A DNA stretch of 60,243 nt from a virus (IMGVR_UViG_3300034190_001683:1-60243); one strand, 5' to 3'; shown: positions 44,052 through 60,243, numbered from the stretch's first letter. Notes: generated by a model from the letters alone, not told the origin. Made by a program: numbers and translations.

Positions 44052-44975
44052 TTATTGACCTAGACCATACTTACTTACAACATCTTCAAGTGAACGCTTT
44101 GTAGCATGACGGACACTATCACTATCACGACACATCTTCGCATCACGCCCATTAACAGCTTGTCGTAAGTCAGATATTAACTTCGTAATATTCGGGTCAT
44201 CAGTTAGATTCAAAGAGTCACCGATATCACAGATGTCATGTATATTACCCAACAACGTGGCTCTAAATATCTTATGATTCTTGAGTCCTTGCTTAGTCTT
44301 AATAGGCACAGGTTCATCTTCAAGACCCTTGATTGCATTTTTAACTACCTCTTGGATTCTACCTACCACATCTTCCATTGACGCTGTCAACTTTTCTGTC
44401 ATGGTAGCTATCATATCGGACTCTAACTTCTGTCTGACTTCCTCAGTAGCTTGGACATGAAACGAACCACTAGGAACAGGACACTCCTCTAGTCTGTATC
44501 TAAACTTGCGCTTGATTTCTTGTGCGCTTGGATACTCTCCACGTGTGACAAGATTATTCAGTAAGAATATAGAAGACGTCACGGACTCCTCGTAGTTTGT
44601 CTCATCTGTAAAGTCCTCAATAAGTTTCTCAAGCTTATCTAGCATGGGGTTTATCTGCTCACAAAATGGTATGTAATTACTAAACTTCATGATTCTCCAA
44701 CCACCCTTCTCAAACACGTTTGTATTCGTGTTAACAAAGTCACGAACCACATTGATTTGCTTACCTATTGCCTTAAACCTTTCGCATTGGGGGAATAATA
44801 TCTTGTTGTAATTACCACCTTTGGTCTTGGTTTGTTTCTGCTCATCAATCTCTGCGGATACATTCTTGTCTAGCTTTCTACCTGTGTATGCGGACACATT
44901 TAGTTTCACAAGAATACAACGCTTGAAAAGATTAGATGTAGCTTGGGGTGTTACGGTATCAAATATCTTTGACAT
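44052..44975 (-). CDS. Helical protein between AAA and vWA genes (DUF3150-like, tentative)
   Basis: 307 aa; YPSA.EI..KF and LNLTDDP motifs. Confidence 0.6.
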   Translation of the reverse strand: MSKIFDTVTPQATSNLFKRCILVKLNVSAYTGRKLDKNVSAEIDEQKQTKTKGGNYNKILFPQCERFKAIGKQINVVRDFVNTNTNVFEKGGWRIMKFSNYIPFCEQINPMLDKLEKLIEDFTDETNYEESVTSSIFLLNNLVTRGEYPSAQEIKRKFRYRLEECPVPSGSFHVQATEEVRQKLESDMIATMTEKLTASMEDVVGRIQEVVKNAIKGLEDEPVPIKTKQGLKNHKIFRATLLGNIHDICDIGDSLNLTDDPNITKLISDLRQAVNGRDAKMCRDSDSVRHATKRSLEDVVSKYGLGQ

Positions 44976-45004
44976 AATGCTCTCCTTAGTTAAGTTAAAA
45001 AATT

Positions 45005-45022
45005 GTAGGAGTCGACTCCTAC
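45005..45022. repeat. Palindrome GTAGGAGTCGACTCCTAC, copy 1
   Basis: Perfect 18-bp palindrome, intergenic. Confidence 0.95.
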
Positions 45023-45027
45023 GTGAA

Positions 45028-46146
45028 CTACTTAGTGAAAATCCAATTCATCTCCATCGCACGTTTCTGGAACGTGTCGTTGTCGATTGCGATTTCCTGC
45101 TTCTTACTACTCATGATTGACCGATAAAATACAGCTTCCCATTCGTCCTTGAACTTGTCACGCATCATGTACTGACACAATGCTGTGAGTGTATCCTCTG
45201 CTGTTGTGACAATAGCTTTAGTCATCAACATACATTGAACCATCGTGTCTTCAGGGATAGGTGCGGTCTTAGGATTAGATAACAGATTACCCCAGTCTGG
45301 TAACTTGTAACCCATCTTGACCTCGGTCATCAGGTCTATACCACTAAGCGTACCAATTGCGCCACACAAAGATGCGGTCAACTCTTCCTCATCTAGTTCG
45401 TCTTTGGCTTTAATCATGTCACTAGCCGCTTCAAGTGAATACGGACACACAAACATATCTGTGCTAGGTTCTCTGCTTGGGTTGAAAATACGCTTACTGT
45501 CAGACCCATCTAGGTATGACTCCAAACAGTCGGGATGATTACGCACAAACATAATGACCTCTGGTGCAATATCATTATCCAACGCATACTCCATCCAACT
45601 ATCAGGCTCGACAAACTCCTTGCCATTCTCATCTACACCAATACCTGCGTGTGGCTTACGTACCAATACCTTTACAGTACGTCTACGTTGATGAGCCTTG
45701 AGTGTATCCATCAACCCATCACTCGCACAGTTTGTAGTGGCAAACACTAGCGAACCCTCTGGCAGATAATTCATACCTTGTCTACGTTCTTGAAGAATAG
45801 GTAATATACTATTGAGTGTACTCTGTGGTGCTTTACCCAACTCATCAAACATAATTATCTGTGGCTTGTTGTCCTGAAAACCTAACAAATGGTTCGGTGC
45901 AAATACTGTGACGTGCATACCATTCATTTCGACAACACGTGGCATTTGAATGTCACCTGTATCTAGCGTAGTACAGTCAACAATGTTGTACCCATACTTA
46001 TCGCCAAATTCCTCAATAAACGAATACAGAATATAAGACTTACCAATACCTGTCTCGCCCTCAAACAAATACGTACGCTTACGACCCAATACTTTGACTA
46101 GGTTCTTCGCACCACGCAAACTTACAGAATGATTGTATCCAATCAT
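45028..46146 (-). CDS. AAA+ ATPase (MoxR/dynein-related type)
   Basis: GETGIGKS Walker A, MFDE Walker B, ATTN sensor 1; linked to the vWA gene. Confidence 0.88.
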   Translation of the reverse strand: MIGYNHSVSLRGAKNLVKVLGRKRTYLFEGETGIGKSYILYSFIEEFGDKYGYNIVDCTTLDTGDIQMPRVVEMNGMHVTVFAPNHLLGFQDNKPQIIMFDELGKAPQSTLNSILPILQERRQGMNYLPEGSLVFATTNCASDGLMDTLKAHQRRRTVKVLVRKPHAGIGVDENGKEFVEPDSWMEYALDNDIAPEVIMFVRNHPDCLESYLDGSDSKRIFNPSREPSTDMFVCPYSLEAASDMIKAKDELDEEELTASLCGAIGTLSGIDLMTEVKMGYKLPDWGNLLSNPKTAPIPEDTMVQCMLMTKAIVTTAEDTLTALCQYMMRDKFKDEWEAVFYRSIMSSKKQEIAIDNDTFQKRAMEMNWIFTK

Positions 46147-46177
46147 TTGACTCTCCTTAATTTAAGATTAAAAAAAC

Positions 46178-46195
46178 GTAGGAGTCGACTCCTAC
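46178..46195. repeat. Palindrome copy 2
   Basis: Identical 18-mer in the 5' leader of the AAA gene. Confidence 0.95.
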
Positions 46196-46215
46196 ACACC
46201 ACACTACATACACAT

Positions 46216-46244
46216 ATACTATATGTATACATTTACAATGTCAA
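46216..46244 (-). promoter_or_regulatory. Sigma70 promoter TTGACA-N17-TAGTAT
   Basis: Same -35/-10 pair as 30888-30916. Confidence 0.65.
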
Positions 46245-46251
46245 TATCCAA

Positions 46252-46428
46252 TCATTTTTCCTCCTTTCTTATTTTTTCTATTTCAGGGTTTACAGCAAAA
46301 TCACGAACGATTCTCTTAAGTTCTTCTCTTCTTTTGAATCTCGCTTCCGCTTCTCGGTGTCTGCGTTCATGCTCAAACATAAACGCTAGGTGTTTAAGAC
46401 CAAACTCACAACTCCACTTTTTTCTCAT
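46252..46428 (-). CDS. Small charged hypothetical protein (58 aa)
   Basis: Hand-translated MRKKWSCEFG...; ATGA overlap with the upstream gene. Confidence 0.55.
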   Translation of the reverse strand: MRKKWSCEFGLKHLAFMFEHERRHREAEARFKRREELKRIVRDFAVNPEIEKIRKEEK

Positions 46429-46637
46429 CTCGTACTCCCATATAAATCTCTGTATGCTTCAATGACTTGCTTTGCAGACAAATCAAGTTTAGCCATTACT
46501 TCTCTCACTTGTTGTTTGGATATAGTATCCATTTCAATTTGGTCAAATACCTCTTCAACATCCTCAGGACTAATTCCAAATCGCTGTGCTACTTTTAACG
46601 CTACATCTACTGCTACATGACTGTGTGATAAATTCAT
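46425..46637 (-). CDS. Hypothetical early protein
   Basis: AAGGAGAGC RBS. Confidence 0.7.
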   Translation of the reverse strand: MNLSHSHVAVDVALKVAQRFGISPEDVEEVFDQIEMDTISKQQVREVMAKLDLSAKQVIEAYRDLYGSTR

Positions 46638-46647
46638 TACGCTCTCC

Positions 46648-46833
46648 TTATTTTTTGTGAACAGTTTTTAAATCATCGGTGTTTGTGATTAGTTGTGGTG
46701 CGCCCTTGTTGTAGGCACACGCCACTGTGCGTGTAGGTGCGACGAAACAAGCAGGGCAATACTGATACCCTGCTTTCCATCTGCGTTTCGTTACTCGGAC
46801 ACCACACCTACACGTGTATTTACGCATGGGCAT
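46648..46833 (-). CDS. Small zinc-ribbon protein
   Basis: CRC...RRWKAGYQYCPAC...NKG. Confidence 0.7.
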   Translation of the reverse strand: MPMRKYTCRCGVRVTKRRWKAGYQYCPACFVAPTRTVACAYNKGAPQLITNTDDLKTVHKK

Positions 46834-47056
46834 AGTTTCTCCTCTTGGTAGGTTTCAGCGGTATCACTCTTTTCACACCCTTGTCATTCAGAAACACATC
46901 ACGCTCGGACATGACGAATGGTACGTTGCCATCGTGCGTAGTCGTTCCTCTACGTTCGATTACTTTCACTTTATCAAGTGCTTCTACCGTTTTGGCAATG
47001 GCTTTCATTTGAAGCAACTGTTCAGGGGTTACTACTGATTTGACTTTGAATGTCAT
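46820..47056 (-). CDS. Hypothetical early protein (first ORF after the long leader)
   Basis: AAGGAGAGC RBS before ATG 47056. Confidence 0.7.
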   Translation of the reverse strand: MTFKVKSVVTPEQLLQMKAIAKTVEALDKVKVIERRGTTTHDGNVPFVMSERDVFLNDKGVKRVIPLKPTKRRNYAHA

Positions 47057-47127
47057 AATGCTCTCCTTTAAATAAAAATAAATAAAAACAAATTGACACA
47101 AACAGAGTGTCGATGAACACTTAGGTC

Positions 47128-47145
47128 GTAGGAGTCGACTCCTAC
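47128..47145. repeat. Palindrome copy 3
   Basis: Identical 18-mer. Confidence 0.95.
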
Positions 47146-47535
47146 ACGTGGACACGTAAATGCTCATCGCCACCCTGTTTTCAAAATGGCTAGTTCCTCT
47201 GCTACTTCTCCGCAGTTCATGGTATTGAGGTTAGGAACAAAAGACGTCAAGATGCTGTAGTGCCAACACGACAAACTCGACACAACAAATCGTGCTACAA
47301 CAAAGTGACGTACGGAGGTACTCACAACGAACTACAAACAAAGGGAGGATAACCAGAAAGAAAGCTTACTCCGGCAAACAAGAGACAGAGGACTAAACCA
47401 CCCGAAACACAAAATGTCAAAGTCTTGAAACGTGGTTGCCAATGGAGAGCGGATATCGAAAGAGTCCGCATATAACTAAAGAACCAGTCATAGCCTGTAT
47501 GAATGTAGAAGCGATGCCCCTACTCCGTACCCGAC

Positions 47536-47554
47536 GTAGGAGTCAGACTCCTAC
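47536..47554. repeat. Palindrome copy 4 (19-bp variant with central A; arms extend to 47533-47557)
   Basis: GACGTAGGAGTC-A-GACTCCTACGTC. Confidence 0.95.
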
Positions 47555-47573
47555 GTCAATGGCGTTTCCGAAT

Positions 47574-47585
47574 TGTTAAAGAACA
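47574..47585 (-). promoter_or_regulatory. boxA antitermination motif
   Basis: TGTTCTTTAACA, 11/12 match to rrn boxA TGCTCTTTAACA, about 30 nt downstream of a promoter. Confidence 0.65.
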
Positions 47586-47621
47586 AACAACTTGCGTTGC
47601 AATCCCAAATGGACTTCGTCC

Positions 47622-47650
47622 ATTGTATCATATTTATATGAGATTGTCAA
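47622..47650 (-). promoter_or_regulatory. Strong early sigma70 promoter TTGACA-N17-TACAAT with extended -10
   Basis: TTGACAatctcatataaataTGaTACAAT on the minus strand. Confidence 0.8.
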
Positions 47651-47678
47651 TAGGTAACCACTTTGGAATTTTCGTGAT

Positions 47679-47697
47679 GTAGGAGTCAGACTCCTAC
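47679..47697. repeat. Palindrome copy 5 (19-bp variant)
   Basis: GTAGGAGTC-A-GACTCCTAC, 28 bp upstream of the -35 box. Confidence 0.95.
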
Positions 47698-47699
47698 GT

Positions 47700-48060
47700 T
47701 TGTTCCAAGCGTTCCACGTTTGTTCCACCCTGCGGAACGATAGTTTTGTCAAATATATCATGAGGTTACGTGCGATAGTGTCAGCCTGTTCCGCTGTTCC
47801 ACCCTAATACAAACACCTGCCGAGAGGGTCGAATGAAGAGTTTCAACCACGACATCTTTGATACCAGTTATGGGAGGTCGTTCGTATATGTTACCTTTTA
47901 CAATAATAATAATAATAATAATAATAATATCCTTTAGAATCAAAAACTTAGGTGCAAAAAAGTCTGTTCCACCTCTGGAACGCACGTAAACTTTCTTCAA
48001 TAATATCAAGTGCTTAGAGTGTTCCACAATCTGGAACAGGCTGGAACAGCCGGAACAACG
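47700..48060. other. Putative replication origin: GTTCC/GGAAC iteron-like repeats around an (AAT)9 tract
   Basis: About a dozen GTTCC/GGAAC units; AAT x9 at 47902-47928; non-coding. Confidence 0.5.
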
Positions 48061-48080
48061 ACATTATATGTATATTAGAT

Positions 48081-48098
48081 GTAGGAGTCGACTCCTAC
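48081..48098. repeat. Palindrome copy 6
   Basis: Identical 18-mer followed by GCCAC. Confidence 0.95.
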
Positions 48099-48316
48099 GC
48101 CACTTTAGTATGATGTTATGTATTTGTAATCTAGTATTTGTATGATGTAATTTATTTTTTACGATGTGGATTTGGTTCGTAGCTTGACTGAACTTGACAA
48201 CTCTTGATGGAACTGGCTTCGAAGAAGCCCGCCGTCCTTCAGACGGCGAAGCGGGGCGGCGCTGCCTTTGCGACGCCCCGCTTTTGACACCAGTTCTCTG
48301 CGAGAAATTTTAGGCG

Positions 48317-48345
48317 AAAAAAAACCCCGACCGGAGTCGGGGTTT
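48317..48345 (-). terminator. Intrinsic terminator
   Basis: AAACCCCGAC-TCCG-GTCGGGG followed by T8 on the minus strand, just after stop 48364. Confidence 0.85.
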
Positions 48346-48363
48346 GTGAGGAGTGTTGCAAGG

Positions 48364-49011
48364 TTAGGCTTTCTTTTCGTCAGCCTGTTGAGCGTTTGTG
48401 AGAGCATCTCTGACGTAGGACAACACGTCTAGCATTGGAGCGTGATTCTCAGCATCAGCCTTTTCTTGTAGTTTGATAATGGATTTTGAAAAGTCTTCGA
48501 CTATTTCACTTTTGTTTTTATCAGCCTTAATTCTAACCTGATAGAAAACATCGCCATTGCTATTGCTAGAGCCAGACTGTCTCGCAGGGTTGAAACTGAA
48601 TTTCTCTTTATTGTTGACAACATTGCGGAGAATCTTCAAATACGTTTGAACAGTTTGAGCCGTATAGAATGGCTCGCCATCTTCATCGACTAGGTCGTAA
48701 AGATATTGTGCAATCGCATTGGCGTTAGGGCAAGACCTAGCGGTATCTTGCGTTTGCCTAGTCTCAAAACCCTTCTGACCATTTTCGCCTTTAGCGTAAC
48801 CAGCCTTTCCAATCGTGACGCCAGCCTTTCGTAGTTCCTTGGCTTTGTCATCGAATTGTTTTTGCTTATCCTTAACGCCAGCCTTAGCGTTTATAAGAGC
48901 GTCTTGAGCGATATCCAAATCCGCCTTTGCGCCAGTACCTTCTAAGAAAGCCTTAGTAAGACCGATGGATAAAGCAACAGTATTAACAACAACGTTTGTT
49001 TTGGTAGTCAT
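48364..49011 (-). CDS. Stand-alone leftward hypothetical protein (probable immediate-early gene)
   Basis: GAAGGAGA RBS before ATG 49011; own terminator; TTGACA at 49094-49099 (weak -10). Confidence 0.8.
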   Translation of the reverse strand: MTTKTNVVVNTVALSIGLTKAFLEGTGAKADLDIAQDALINAKAGVKDKQKQFDDKAKELRKAGVTIGKAGYAKGENGQKGFETRQTQDTARSCPNANAIAQYLYDLVDEDGEPFYTAQTVQTYLKILRNVVNNKEKFSFNPARQSGSSNSNGDVFYQVRIKADKNKSEIVEDFSKSIIKLQEKADAENHAPMLDVLSYVRDALTNAQQADEKKA

Positions 49012-49132
49012 AATTTTCTCCTTCAAAATGACTGTTAATGAAATATGGCAATTACCGCAACCACAACTATATAGTCTCACAACCCTGTTACACTGTCAAA
49101 TAATACGTGGTAATTAATTGTCGTGTGTTGTC

Positions 49133-49150
49133 GTAGGAGTCGACTCCTAC
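49133..49150. repeat. Palindrome copy 7
   Basis: Identical 18-mer followed by GCCAC. Confidence 0.95.
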
Positions 49151-49286
49151 GCCACCCCTTTTCGAGTTATAGCCTAGAGAACTGGTCTCCCCCACCCCCC
49201 TGTGTGTGTCAGATGGGACCCGGCTGTCTGTACTGTGTGTTTTGCTCGTTAGATTTCAAATTTTTTGAAAATAGACCCACCCCCTA

Positions 49287-49315
49287 TTGACTTTTTATGA
49301 GACCCGTGGTAGGTT
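49287..49315 (+). promoter_or_regulatory. Putative rightward promoter TTGACT-N17-TAGGTT (extended -10)
   Basis: Upstream of the terminase genes. Confidence 0.5.
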
Positions 49316-49365
49316 CAAAATCTAACAAGTACCCCCTAACGAAAAAAGGAGTCCCGTTTCCTCTC

Positions 49366-49950
49366 ATGCCACTAACAATTACACCAGACGTAGGAATACC
49401 ACTACCATTTGATGTAACACCAGAAGAGGTAAAGGATTTTAGAAAGAAGGCAAAAGCAGCCTTTAACACTATCAAATCTCTACTAGATGCTGGCGCTCAG
49501 ATGCCAGAATTAGACGAGGGTACATCCACACAAGCACACGAATTAATGGCACGGGAAAAACTCCCGGTTGCTAAGACACCGCCCGGTGTAATAATAAAAC
49601 TAGAAGCCTTGCTGACTCATTATGATCATGAGTTTCTAAATGCAAATGACAGGCTCGCAAATTATGTAACGAATAGATTATTGGAAGAAACTGAGAATGA
49701 AGATGCACGTTTTCGATTAAAGGCATTGGAGTTGCTTGGAAAGCGCAGAGGGGTAAACTTATTCTCAGAGCAACACGATGTCACAATAAGACAGAAACCT
49801 ACCGAAGATATAGAAAACAGATTGAATCAGATATTGGGTAGGTATGTAACAGATGTAGAAACAGTGGAGGAGAACACTAATGAACTTTTAGAGAATGAAT
49901 CAGATCACACCTCTACAGATTATCAAGAAAAACCCGCATCTACTAAGTAA
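49366..49950 (+). CDS. Putative terminase small subunit
   Basis: Directly before terL; RLKALELLGK...LFSE motif; ATG 49366 lies downstream of the promoter. Confidence 0.7.
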   Translation: MPLTITPDVGIPLPFDVTPEEVKDFRKKAKAAFNTIKSLLDAGAQMPELDEGTSTQAHELMAREKLPVAKTPPGVIIKLEALLTHYDHEFLNANDRLANYVTNRLLEETENEDARFRLKALELLGKRRGVNLFSEQHDVTIRQKPTEDIENRLNQILGRYVTDVETVEENTNELLENESDHTSTDYQEKPASTK

Positions 49951-59538: not shown

Positions 59539-59801
59539 TGGAAAAAGAAGAGATACAGAAAATCTTCAGAGGTGATATTAAAAGTGAAGTTGCTGTTCAG
59601 GCAAATGAGATAAAACACCTTCATTCTGACGTAGAGGATATGAAAGCTGATATAGAAGAAATTAAAAAATCTCTTGCAGAGATTCACAAAGTATTATCAG
59701 AGGCTAGGGGTGGTTGGAAAACATTGATGTGGGCAGCAGGCGCAGGAAGCGCTGTAACTGCTTTTATTATTGCAATACAACAAATTTTTTGGGGAAAGTA
59801 A
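59538..59801 (+). CDS. Coiled-coil protein with one C-terminal TM helix
   Basis: TAATG coupling on both sides; its 3' part is repeated at 1-137. Confidence 0.7.
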   Translation: MEKEEIQKIFRGDIKSEVAVQANEIKHLHSDVEDMKADIEEIKKSLAEIHKVLSEARGGWKTLMWAAGAGSAVTAFIIAIQQIFWGK

Positions 59802-60190
59802 TGAATCAAAAAGAAAAAAAACGTCTTTTAAGTGTTGACGCTATACCCGCTGCAGGAAAGATGGATGAGTTTATAGAAAAAAGAATGCAAGCAAAATTCC
59901 CAAAGCTGTACCCTGATGATGAAGCAAAGAAAACAATGTCAAAAAAAGACAAGGCTGAGATTGATGCTTTTATGAAACGTTATGAAAAAGATAAAGATCT
60001 TACAGATGAGTTTAAGAAAAAAATTAGGGGGGAATTAGAAGACGGCTATGCACGGGTTAGAGGTAAATCAAAAGCTCAAAGTGGAGGCATGAAAGCCGGA
60101 GGTAAAGTAAAAGCTAAGAAAAAAACAACCAGAAAATTTAGAGGTGATGGTATTGTTAAAAAAGGCAAGACTAAATGTAAGATGAGATAA
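59801..60190 (+). CDS. Basic hypothetical protein, allele B
   Basis: Same position and C-terminus (MKAGGKV...RGDGIVKKGKTKCKMR) as 137-667. Confidence 0.8.
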   Translation: MNQKEKKRLLSVDAIPAAGKMDEFIEKRMQAKFPKLYPDDEAKKTMSKKDKAEIDAFMKRYEKDKDLTDEFKKKIRGELEDGYARVRGKSKAQSGGMKAGGKVKAKKKTTRKFRGDGIVKKGKTKCKMR

Positions 60191-60243
60191 AGGAGGTTTA
60201 GGGTGGCATATTTAATTAGTAACATTCCGTATACAAAGGTTTG

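Follow-up and report, generated by a model that had tools for sequence, protein, structure and literature searches.

Background

The virus record IMGVR_UViG_3300034190_001683:1-60243 raises the question of what occupies the roughly 550 nucleotides (nt) that separate a near-consensus promoter from the next credible start codon in the early region of the genome. This record, which is the whole stretch of DNA analysed here and is referred to as the window, is 60,243 nt long with a completeness estimate of 96%. The initial annotation, made from the sequence alone, proposed at this locus a large structured noncoding RNA (ncRNA) or a nut-like antitermination leader serving the ~21-kilobase (kb) leftward arm. 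The structured RNA was borne out: the element is kept in distant relatives and contains three long-range helices with compensatory changes. It is a real conserved structured RNA and represents an RNA family not yet described, and the best reading of the locus is a structured early RNA family of ~260-500 nt. All coordinates of the RNA element given below are on the minus strand.

Conservation and fold of the RNA

An alignment of ATPase homologues provided 80 loci retrieved out of 393 relatives confirmed by tblastn, and an iterated nhmmer search seeded with the window leader was run on 81 related sequences. The element is present in 33 of these 81, in each case co-directional with the ATPase and the early genes and upstream of them. 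A pattern scan of viral contigs identified it in 19 of 87 loci and a DNA-pattern scan of metagenomes in 16 of 115; removal of near-duplicates left 30 non-redundant copies of the 46 full elements, which form the family set used here. The closest relatives, L009 and L010, are two viral contigs with an ATPase 91-93% identical to that of the window and with the same region present, and an exact scan of viral contigs with a core 22-mer matched only these two. Relatives in which the ATPase is just 37-42% identical to that of the window still keep the element. Those that have no RNA lack the whole module, as in L066, where ~160 nt lie at this position. A 14-mer scan of prokaryote genomes (at least 120 stretches) led to 124 profile-scanned loci, none of which carries the element, and gave no clue to a host or prophage. 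Against a phage collection, blastn of the region returned zero matches, and tblastn with the ATPase gave identities of at most 24% among the 25 records listed of 205 that matched. This collection, from which records close to the window may be absent, thus offers no close cultured relative.

Conserved blocks define the family across this range of divergence. The boxA element, block 4 (GTGCAGAGTAGGCGTAGG) and block 6 (CCC-GAAC..ACAGGACTGC-loop-AGCAGAGGG) are kept in all 30 copies, and block 5 (GAGCAGTATCTCTGCGG) is recognised by consensus in 28; it is divergent in the window and L009, where it was placed by eye. Blocks 4 and 5 are separated by 13-233 nt, and 82-183 nt extend from block 5 to 12 nt past block 6. 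Spacing as variable as this fits an RNA whose peripheral domains vary, and not a protein gene.

Relative to shuffled sequences, the minus-strand RNA has a fold z-score of -5.14 compared with -2.49 for the plus strand. Covariation among homologues, the check suggested at the outset, revealed compensatory changes in the long-range helices P1, P3 and P4. Helix P1 corresponds to the pairing of CTCCGTAC with GTACGGAG that had been predicted from the window alone (47530-47523 with 47317-47310), and covariation confirms it. Its 5' strand GTACGGAG (47523-47530), which is followed by the conserved block GTAGG, lies in block 4, and its 3' strand CTCCGTAC (47310-47317) lies in block 5. Standard pairs fill 99.4% of the 330 P1 cells of the family alignment, and 6 of the 11 pairs are changed on both sides. 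The covariation score was reached by none of 500 shuffles, and registers slid along the helix pair in 21-57% of cells. The window has the variant ACGGAG/CTCCGT, and other members carry GCAGAG/CTCTGC, GCAAGG/CCTTGC, GCGTAG/CTACGC, ATAGGG/CCCTAT, TTAGAG/CTCTAA or GCAGGG/CCCTGC. P1 also carries a conserved purine-rich internal loop.

The long-range helix P3 (47246-47309; 47309-47294 with 47263-47246) joins the 16 nt that follow P1 to the stretch preceding P4, and encloses a tip hairpin CACGA/TCGTG with a U/G-rich loop. The duplex formed with its own partner in the window has an energy of -15.5 kcal/mol versus -5.8 kcal/mol with foreign partners, and the family means are -17.1 and -9.4 kcal/mol, respectively. 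The own partner ranks among the top 5 of 30 in 28 of the 30 members, the exceptions being L039 and L091. The predicted pair GTTCCT/AGGAAC is now P4 (47193-47238; 47238-47233 with 47198-47193), which encloses a C/A-rich loop and the hairpin P5. Double changes in the family establish it: two of its pairs show 12 and 15 of them, with the alternatives UA/GC/AU and GC/CG/AU/UA. These counts treat the window and L009 as unpaired, since MAFFT set both out of register at P4. Hairpin P5 (CTGC 47215-47212 with GCAG 47202-47199, minus strand) is invariant and for that reason says nothing either way on pairing.

The remaining pairings are local. The hairpin with 12-base-pair (bp) arms that had been noted 16 nt past boxA was found as P0 (47533-47557; GACGTAGGAGTC-T-GACTCCTACGTC), and is built on a palindrome specific to this genome. 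Between boxA and P1, the short subfamily also has a hairpin (alifold), and hairpins of differing sequence can be read in the alignments of other subfamilies. Enclosed by P1 is P2 (47318-47522), a lineage-specific expansion with the hairpins GCGGA/TCCGC (47469-47449) and AACCAC/GTGGTT (47437-47432 with 47401-47396). Both had been listed as complementary pairs and both stand as local hairpins of the insert with modest support, the former from covarying hairpins at this place in other subfamilies and the latter from one compensatory change in L009/L010. The pair CATCGC/GCGATG of the same list has no counterpart in the relatives and is unsupported. Near the 3' end, a weak terminator-like hairpin GACAC..GTGTC with a T-rich tract (47070-47111) stands just before the ribosome-binding site and the ATG at 47056. 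The richness in UUUGU words ascribed to the transcribed strand is real in the window, where the leader has 10 TTTGT in 581 nt versus 1.7 expected from the genome-wide density, but it is specific to this lineage and other subfamilies are C/A-rich there.

Promoter, boxA and upstream words

The RNA is preceded by a sigma-70 promoter (47622-47650, minus strand) consisting of TTGACA (47650-47645), a 17-nt spacer and TG-a-TACAAT (47627-47622), with the TG at -15/-14 giving an extended -10 element. It scores 11 of 12 and is the top promoter-like site within 44800-49400. The consensus promoter claimed at this position is near-consensus. Each of the 30 relatives has a promoter with a score of 10 of 12 or better, placed 19-156 nt ahead of boxA. 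Transcription would start near 47615.

The boxA claimed for the leader was found again at 47585-47574 (TGTTCTTTAACA) and is kept in all 30 copies. As a feature it spans 47573-47585 (TGTTCTTTAACAA, minus strand). The reference was taken from the Escherichia coli rrnB leader, which reads TGCTCTTTAACAA and contains the boxA 12-mer GCTCTTTAACAA; the window word GTTCTTTAACAA (47584-47573) differs from this 12-mer by one mismatch (11/12). Within the window alone the word is not above chance, with 7 matches at up to 2 mismatches versus 10.2 expected, so its weight comes from conservation among relatives. With up to three mismatches allowed it is present in 30 of 30, exactly in 14, with one mismatch in 3, with two in 12 and with three in 1. 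Its setting is equally constant: in every member it is promoter-proximal on the transcribed strand, which is also the strand of the downstream genes, and in most relatives it is followed by NNNGNN-AAATGC. The scan of the early arm gave no second boxA on its transcribed strand. Judged by its sequence, this boxA is of the rrn type and not the lambda type, and it would be expected to recruit NusB and NusE.

An array of TGGAACA/GAACA words, oriented either way, occupies 47701-48048 ahead of the RNA promoter and surrounds an (ATT)n run at ~47900-47930. Seven of the 21 TGGAACA copies of the window fall in this interval, where 9 are expected in the whole window. Over the 30 elements, GAACA/TGTTC occurs upstream of the promoter at 4.15 per 250 nt compared with a background of 0.58, an enrichment of ~7-fold that extends across subfamilies. 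These words are likely sites of a conserved DNA-binding regulator, or the iterons of an origin.

Coding potential and known RNA families

The absence of a credible open reading frame (ORF) before 47056, asserted in the initial annotation, was upheld. All ORFs within 47070-47620 encode at most 53 amino acids (aa); those of 36-53 aa that exist on the minus strand are broken by one-base indels in L009/L010. A search for ORF families inside the element (plus strand from 45 aa, minus strand from 60 aa) gave none across the 30 loci. The next credible start is an AAGGAG site followed by the ATG at 47056.

The suggested Rfam scan was run and no family matches. None of the 4227 models of Rfam 15, which include 5S ribosomal RNA (rRNA) and should include GOLLD and ROOL, reached its gathering score in the window, and when scanned by E-value, the window element (limit E = 5) and four relatives (limit E = 10) gave chance-level matches only (E of at least 0.37). 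A literature search, which did not extend to supplementary files, returned no description of this RNA.

A likeness to 5S rRNA was pursued as a candidate. Words shared with E. coli 5S rRNA (L300:5838-5957), namely AGAGTAGG, CCCATGCC, GGAACTGC and GTAGTGTGGG, lie in block 4, block 6 and a P3 strand, and are partly colinear in one subfamily. Shared 7-mers number 176 compared with 77 +/- 25 for shuffled 5S (0 of 300 shuffles as high), and shared 8-mers 72 compared with 20 +/- 14 (3 of 300 as high). The structural contexts differ, some subfamilies lack the words and the 5S covariance model has no match with E up to 10; the likeness was kept as a lead only.

Genome-specific palindromes

The palindrome on which P0 is built, GTAGGAGTC(N)GACTCCTAC, has 7 exact copies in the window, all within 45005-49150, where 0 are expected. 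One 19-nt copy (47679-47697) stands just upstream of the -35 hexamer, and an 18-nt copy (47128-47145) lies 3' of the RNA body and has no T-run. In the two close relatives all 7 copies read GTAGAAGTC(N)GACTTCTAC, a change made on both arms. Distant relatives have the versions TACTGTC-N-GACAGTA, TATAGTC-N-GACTATA, TCAAGTC-N-GACTTGA and GTTAAGTA-N-TACTTAAC, most of which keep the GTC-N-GAC centre. That the hairpin is uniform in each genome yet differs from one genome to another points to a factor that recognises it, or to the spread of a cassette resembling the PeSLs discussed below.

The 22 loci in which copies were counted hold 5-13 each. A downstream T-run accompanies just 22 of these 196 copies, and 2 of 7 in the window (46197-46176 and 45022-45005) are intrinsic terminators, so intrinsic termination is not a property of the copies as a family and the idea of a terminator series was rejected as a general statement. 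Several of the copies listed, including some in L047 and L083, lie immediately 5' of a ribosome-binding site. We conclude that the palindromes are genome-specific punctuation hairpins, most of which are not terminators. Where the upstream flank measures 5 kb or more, a palindrome family is present in 19 of 20 loci that bear the RNA versus 5 of 29 that lack it, one of these five being a plain AT repeat; this co-occurrence may reflect shared descent. The hairpin P0 was not assigned as a boxB, as it is adjacent to boxA (16 nt) but not site-specific.

In a separate observation, the segment 46176-46244 combines a sigma-70-like promoter, the genome-specific hairpin with a T-run ~20-50 nt downstream and the ribosome-binding site of the ATPase gene. 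This arrangement recurs in L037 (7873-7970) and looks like an attenuator or a short-RNA unit.

Presence in RNA libraries

The metatranscriptome check proposed initially placed the element in RNA libraries of four studies. Contigs of relatives, aligned at a likeness of at least 88%, map on the element from four RNA libraries; such contigs establish presence but give no information on strand, ends or level, and RNA libraries can contain DNA. The 357-nt contig of X16 corresponds exactly to 47198-47554. X18 covers 47190-47395 and 47451-47582, and X20 covers 47201-47348 and 47444-47531, with loose ends of these contigs resembling the hairpin or boxA region of relatives. Parts of the window uncovered in the four libraries prove nothing. 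The exact stretch was found in 14 runs, mostly seawater, marine and estuary metagenomes, of which 13 appear to be labelled as DNA.

The library that contains this very phage, X15, also has contigs at 47955-48208 (minus strand) at a depth of 50-100 versus 2-7 elsewhere in the region. They include a head-to-tail joint 48177->47955, the low end of which matches the T-run after the hairpin GTTCCAGAGGTGGAAC (47981-47966). This interval could represent a second abundant small RNA of ~223 nt, holding the palindrome copy at 48081-48098.

Proposed explanation and alternatives

On balance we favour, with modest confidence, the view that 47615-47070 (minus strand) is both an ncRNA gene and a leader, in which an early RNA headed by boxA is transcribed with the aid of Nus factors and carries a folded cargo. 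Host RNA polymerase would start at the near-consensus sigma-70 early promoter and would transcribe the rrn-type boxA followed by a modular RNA composed of P0, P1 enclosing the variable P2, P3, and P4 enclosing P5. The nascent boxA would bind host NusB/NusE and nucleate an antitermination complex of the rRNA-operon type. This complex would make the polymerase resistant to Rho over 260-500 nt of untranslated, partly C-rich RNA, may assist co-transcriptional formation of the long-range helices P1 and P3, and would let transcription proceed to the small early genes that follow. As the cargo, the folded body would be bracketed by punctuation hairpins of the phage in the manner of early cistrons. 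It is most likely released as a discrete ~360-nt RNA (~47557-47193) that binds a protein partner. The body may act in cis on the polymerase, as put RNAs do, or in trans after excision, or both.

Several observations weigh against this explanation. Its connection of the leader boxA with Nus factors is predicted and the protein partner of the body is hypothetical; in addition, boxA can also promote Rho termination, as described for suhB (PMC12360218). Close relatives share 95.6-96.2% identity over the core, which falls within the 78-99% of its neighbours. Nucleotide conservation at this level is unexceptional and was dropped as evidence, so that the case rests on the distant members. In X15 a contig (47066-47235) bridges the proposed 3' end, and the body (47236-47557) is uncovered. 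In three studies the contigs end within 47190-47201, at the 3' edge of P4; these shared stops may only reflect where relatives fall below 88% likeness. A terminator-like site within 260 nt after P4 is present in only 16 of 30 relatives, at varying positions. A terminator closing the RNA is thus inconsistent across the family, and the RNA probably serves the genes that follow as a true leader too. Together with the downstream promoters, the lack of a consistent terminator after P4 fits a leader that is also processed.

Among rival explanations, the RNA may itself be a cis-acting processive antiterminator, comparable with HK022 put but larger and with a boxA, that stays with its own polymerase, carries it past the hairpin terminators 46197-46176 and 45022-45005 and thereby switches on the leftward replication arm; we regard this as possible, though unlikely. 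The element does head a co-directional early arm that contains two intrinsic terminators made of the same hairpin, its boxA adjoins a hairpin (ordered as in lambda nut in the window, and with the hairpin first, as in rrn, in other subfamilies), and the palindrome family accompanies the RNA in the 19 of 20 versus 5 of 29 loci noted above. That association may be shared descent only, however, and just 22 of 196 hairpin copies have a T-run. The RNA is also several times larger than put RNA, and promoters inside the arm, such as 46244-46216, could express the downstream genes without read-through. Given these further promoters downstream, service to the whole ~21-kb leftward arm, as initially supposed, is conjectural. 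The nut-like antitermination leader of the initial annotation stands in so far as boxA is conserved in 30 of 30, but that boxA is of the rrn and not the lambda type. Nor was a lambda N-like protein or an antiterminator family found among the genes scanned against PHROGs and Pfam, small flanking ORFs included; in some subfamilies the small gene after the RNA has an RRKKSWRK-like stretch, with no BLASTP similarity to the first post-RNA gene of the window. An opposite role for boxA, in which the Nus-bound element promotes Rho termination as in the suhB leader and the leader is an attenuator that limits the early genes, seems improbable. A boxA-dependent enhancement of Rho termination is described, and a C-rich, G-poor stretch lies before and inside P4 in most subfamilies, but the suhB effect acts through blocked translation next to a ribosome-binding site (PMC12360218). 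Here boxA is more than 450 nt from the next start codon, with a large conserved fold between.

The locus could also be a replication origin, in which the GAACA array provides initiator sites, (ATT)n is the unwinding element and the RNA primes or activates replication like ColE1 RNA II. The ~7-fold enrichment of GAACA upstream of the promoter over the 30 elements, the 7 TGGAACA copies around the (ATT)n run, the family A DNA polymerase encoded by the phage and the ~550 nt from promoter to T-rich end are in its favour. We nonetheless consider an origin quite improbable. A primase-helicase-like gene (DUF927) is encoded by the phage itself, transcription of the RNA leads away from the word array, the entire module is missing from those members of the phage group that have no RNA, and the GC skew of the window only tracks gene direction. 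In the RNA II system, boxA is not known to have a role. A last explanation, that the region encodes small proteins and the structure is a by-product, is very hard to credit. Minus-strand ORFs of 36-53 aa do exist, but the indels in L009/L010 and the lack of any ORF family inside the element speak against it, as do inserts of 13-233 nt between conserved blocks and compensatory changes of the base-pairing kind.

Beyond these alternatives, a group of uncultivated phages might borrow the rRNA transcription and folding machinery of the host, from strong promoter, hairpin and rrn boxA to the Nus complex, for an ornate early RNA that is a host-takeover device. Such an RNA could be a decoy whose 5S-like words draw off ribosomal or other RNA-binding proteins, or an RNA-only antiterminator working with the punctuation hairpins. 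We regard this proposal as rather doubtful.

Comparison with known systems

The rrn and lambda-N complexes protect polymerase against Rho, and a key step of their assembly is the recruitment of NusB/E by boxA (PMC12360218); pre-rRNA combines the antitermination elements boxB, boxA and boxC with long leader-trailer helices (PMC10250234). The element resembles the rRNA operon leader (boxB-boxA-boxC, with NusA/B/E/G, SuhB and S4) in having the exact 12-mer GCTCTTTAACAA in 14 of 30 members behind a strong sigma-70 promoter, a hairpin that in several subfamilies is just before boxA, as boxB is, and a boxA ahead of a long untranslated RNA with long-range helices of the kind described for pre-rRNA (PMC10250234). 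It differs in that the cargo of the phage is not rRNA (neither the 5S model nor Rfam finds anything), no boxC was identified, and it lies in a phage early operon with protein genes next; Nus binding is here a prediction from sequence. With lambda nut it shares a boxA followed by a hairpin, a position in a phage early leader and terminators ahead. Where lambda nutR has CGCTCTTA, 9 nt and a 15-nt hairpin, the window has boxA, 16 nt and a 25-nt hairpin. Unlike CGCTCTTA, the window boxA is of the rrn type and is single on the transcribed strand of the early arm; its hairpin occurs in 7 copies and is not site-specific, and no N-like protein is present among the scanned genes. Lambda nut sites also come without the conserved structured RNA of 260-500 nt that follows boxA in the window.

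The put RNAs of phage HK022 are ~70 nt long, have two stem-loops and are not known to need boxA or Nus factors. Like put, the element is a structured RNA of a phage early leader and could act on the polymerase transcribing it; the window element is several times larger and has a boxA. Reportedly, a boxA upstream of CRISPR arrays prevents Rho termination (Stringer et al., 2020). Such arrays are said to share with the element a boxA before a long untranslated transcript, but have other cargo and are chromosomal, not phage-borne.

GOLLD and ROOL are described as large ornate RNAs linked to phages and prophages (PMC12286853). The element is likewise several hundred nt long, has many helices, is associated with phages and has no known function. 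It differs from both in its blank Rfam scans, its position as a leader headed by boxA, its modular three-domain architecture and its genome-specific hairpins. The palindromes, in turn, recall PeSLs, composite promoter/terminator stem-loop cassettes of T4-like phages (PMC4122927), in that copies of an identical short stem-loop recur through the early variable region of a single genome, and some are joined to a sigma-70 promoter or a T-run. They differ in that the stem changes between genomes with the GTC-N-GAC centre mostly kept, and most copies have neither promoter nor T-run.

Genomic setting

Scans against PHROGs and Pfam assign early and replication functions to the leftward genes from 49080 down to 26448. 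These include the AAA ATPase gene (45028-46146), a DUF2201 protein, the family A DNA polymerase, a PD-(D/E)XK nuclease, an SNF2 helicase and the DUF927 primase-like protein. Terminase, portal and structural genes run rightward from 49297, and a tRNA scan found no tRNA genes in the window. At the ends of the record, 1-154 versus 59665-59818 and 581-720 versus 60104-60243 are 94% identical stretches; these lie in genes with MAKGG-like repeats and look like duplicated genes, not a terminal repeat.

The first early gene (48364-49080, minus strand, 238 aa) has no PHROGs or Pfam family and is not conserved in the DNA of L010, though both of its flanks are. A protein of ~180 aa with a similar C-terminal motif occupies this position in 22 of the 30 loci. 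Directly after the gene is a strong intrinsic terminator (48322-48345, minus strand) with a 10-bp stem and 8 T; the listed 82-aa ORF 48159-48407 overlaps it and is probably no gene. Downstream of the RNA, a zinc-ribbon protein of 61 aa with CxxC...CxxC (46648-46833, minus strand) has no Pfam family, and its homologues in most relatives share a conserved PMHKSNY...NNKGGLVK tail. It was considered as a partner of the RNA and rejected, since it accompanies the RNA in 28 of 30 loci but is encoded in 22 RNA-less loci as well.

Conclusions

Large structured RNAs without an assigned function are rare, and several of those described have links to phages. The family described here offers an unusually clear handle on such an RNA: a conserved rRNA-type boxA, no lambda-like N system seen, and a long untranslated RNA behind it. 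Its occurrence in marine, estuarine and other metagenomes and in metatranscriptomes indicates that it is not the curiosity of one genome. The genome-specific hairpins that accompany the RNA point to a regulator that recognises them, and promoter, boxA and foldable cargo together make a compact natural module. If the proposed explanation is true, the protection and folding of a long ncRNA through boxA would extend from rRNA, and reportedly CRISPR arrays, to an RNA encoded by phages.

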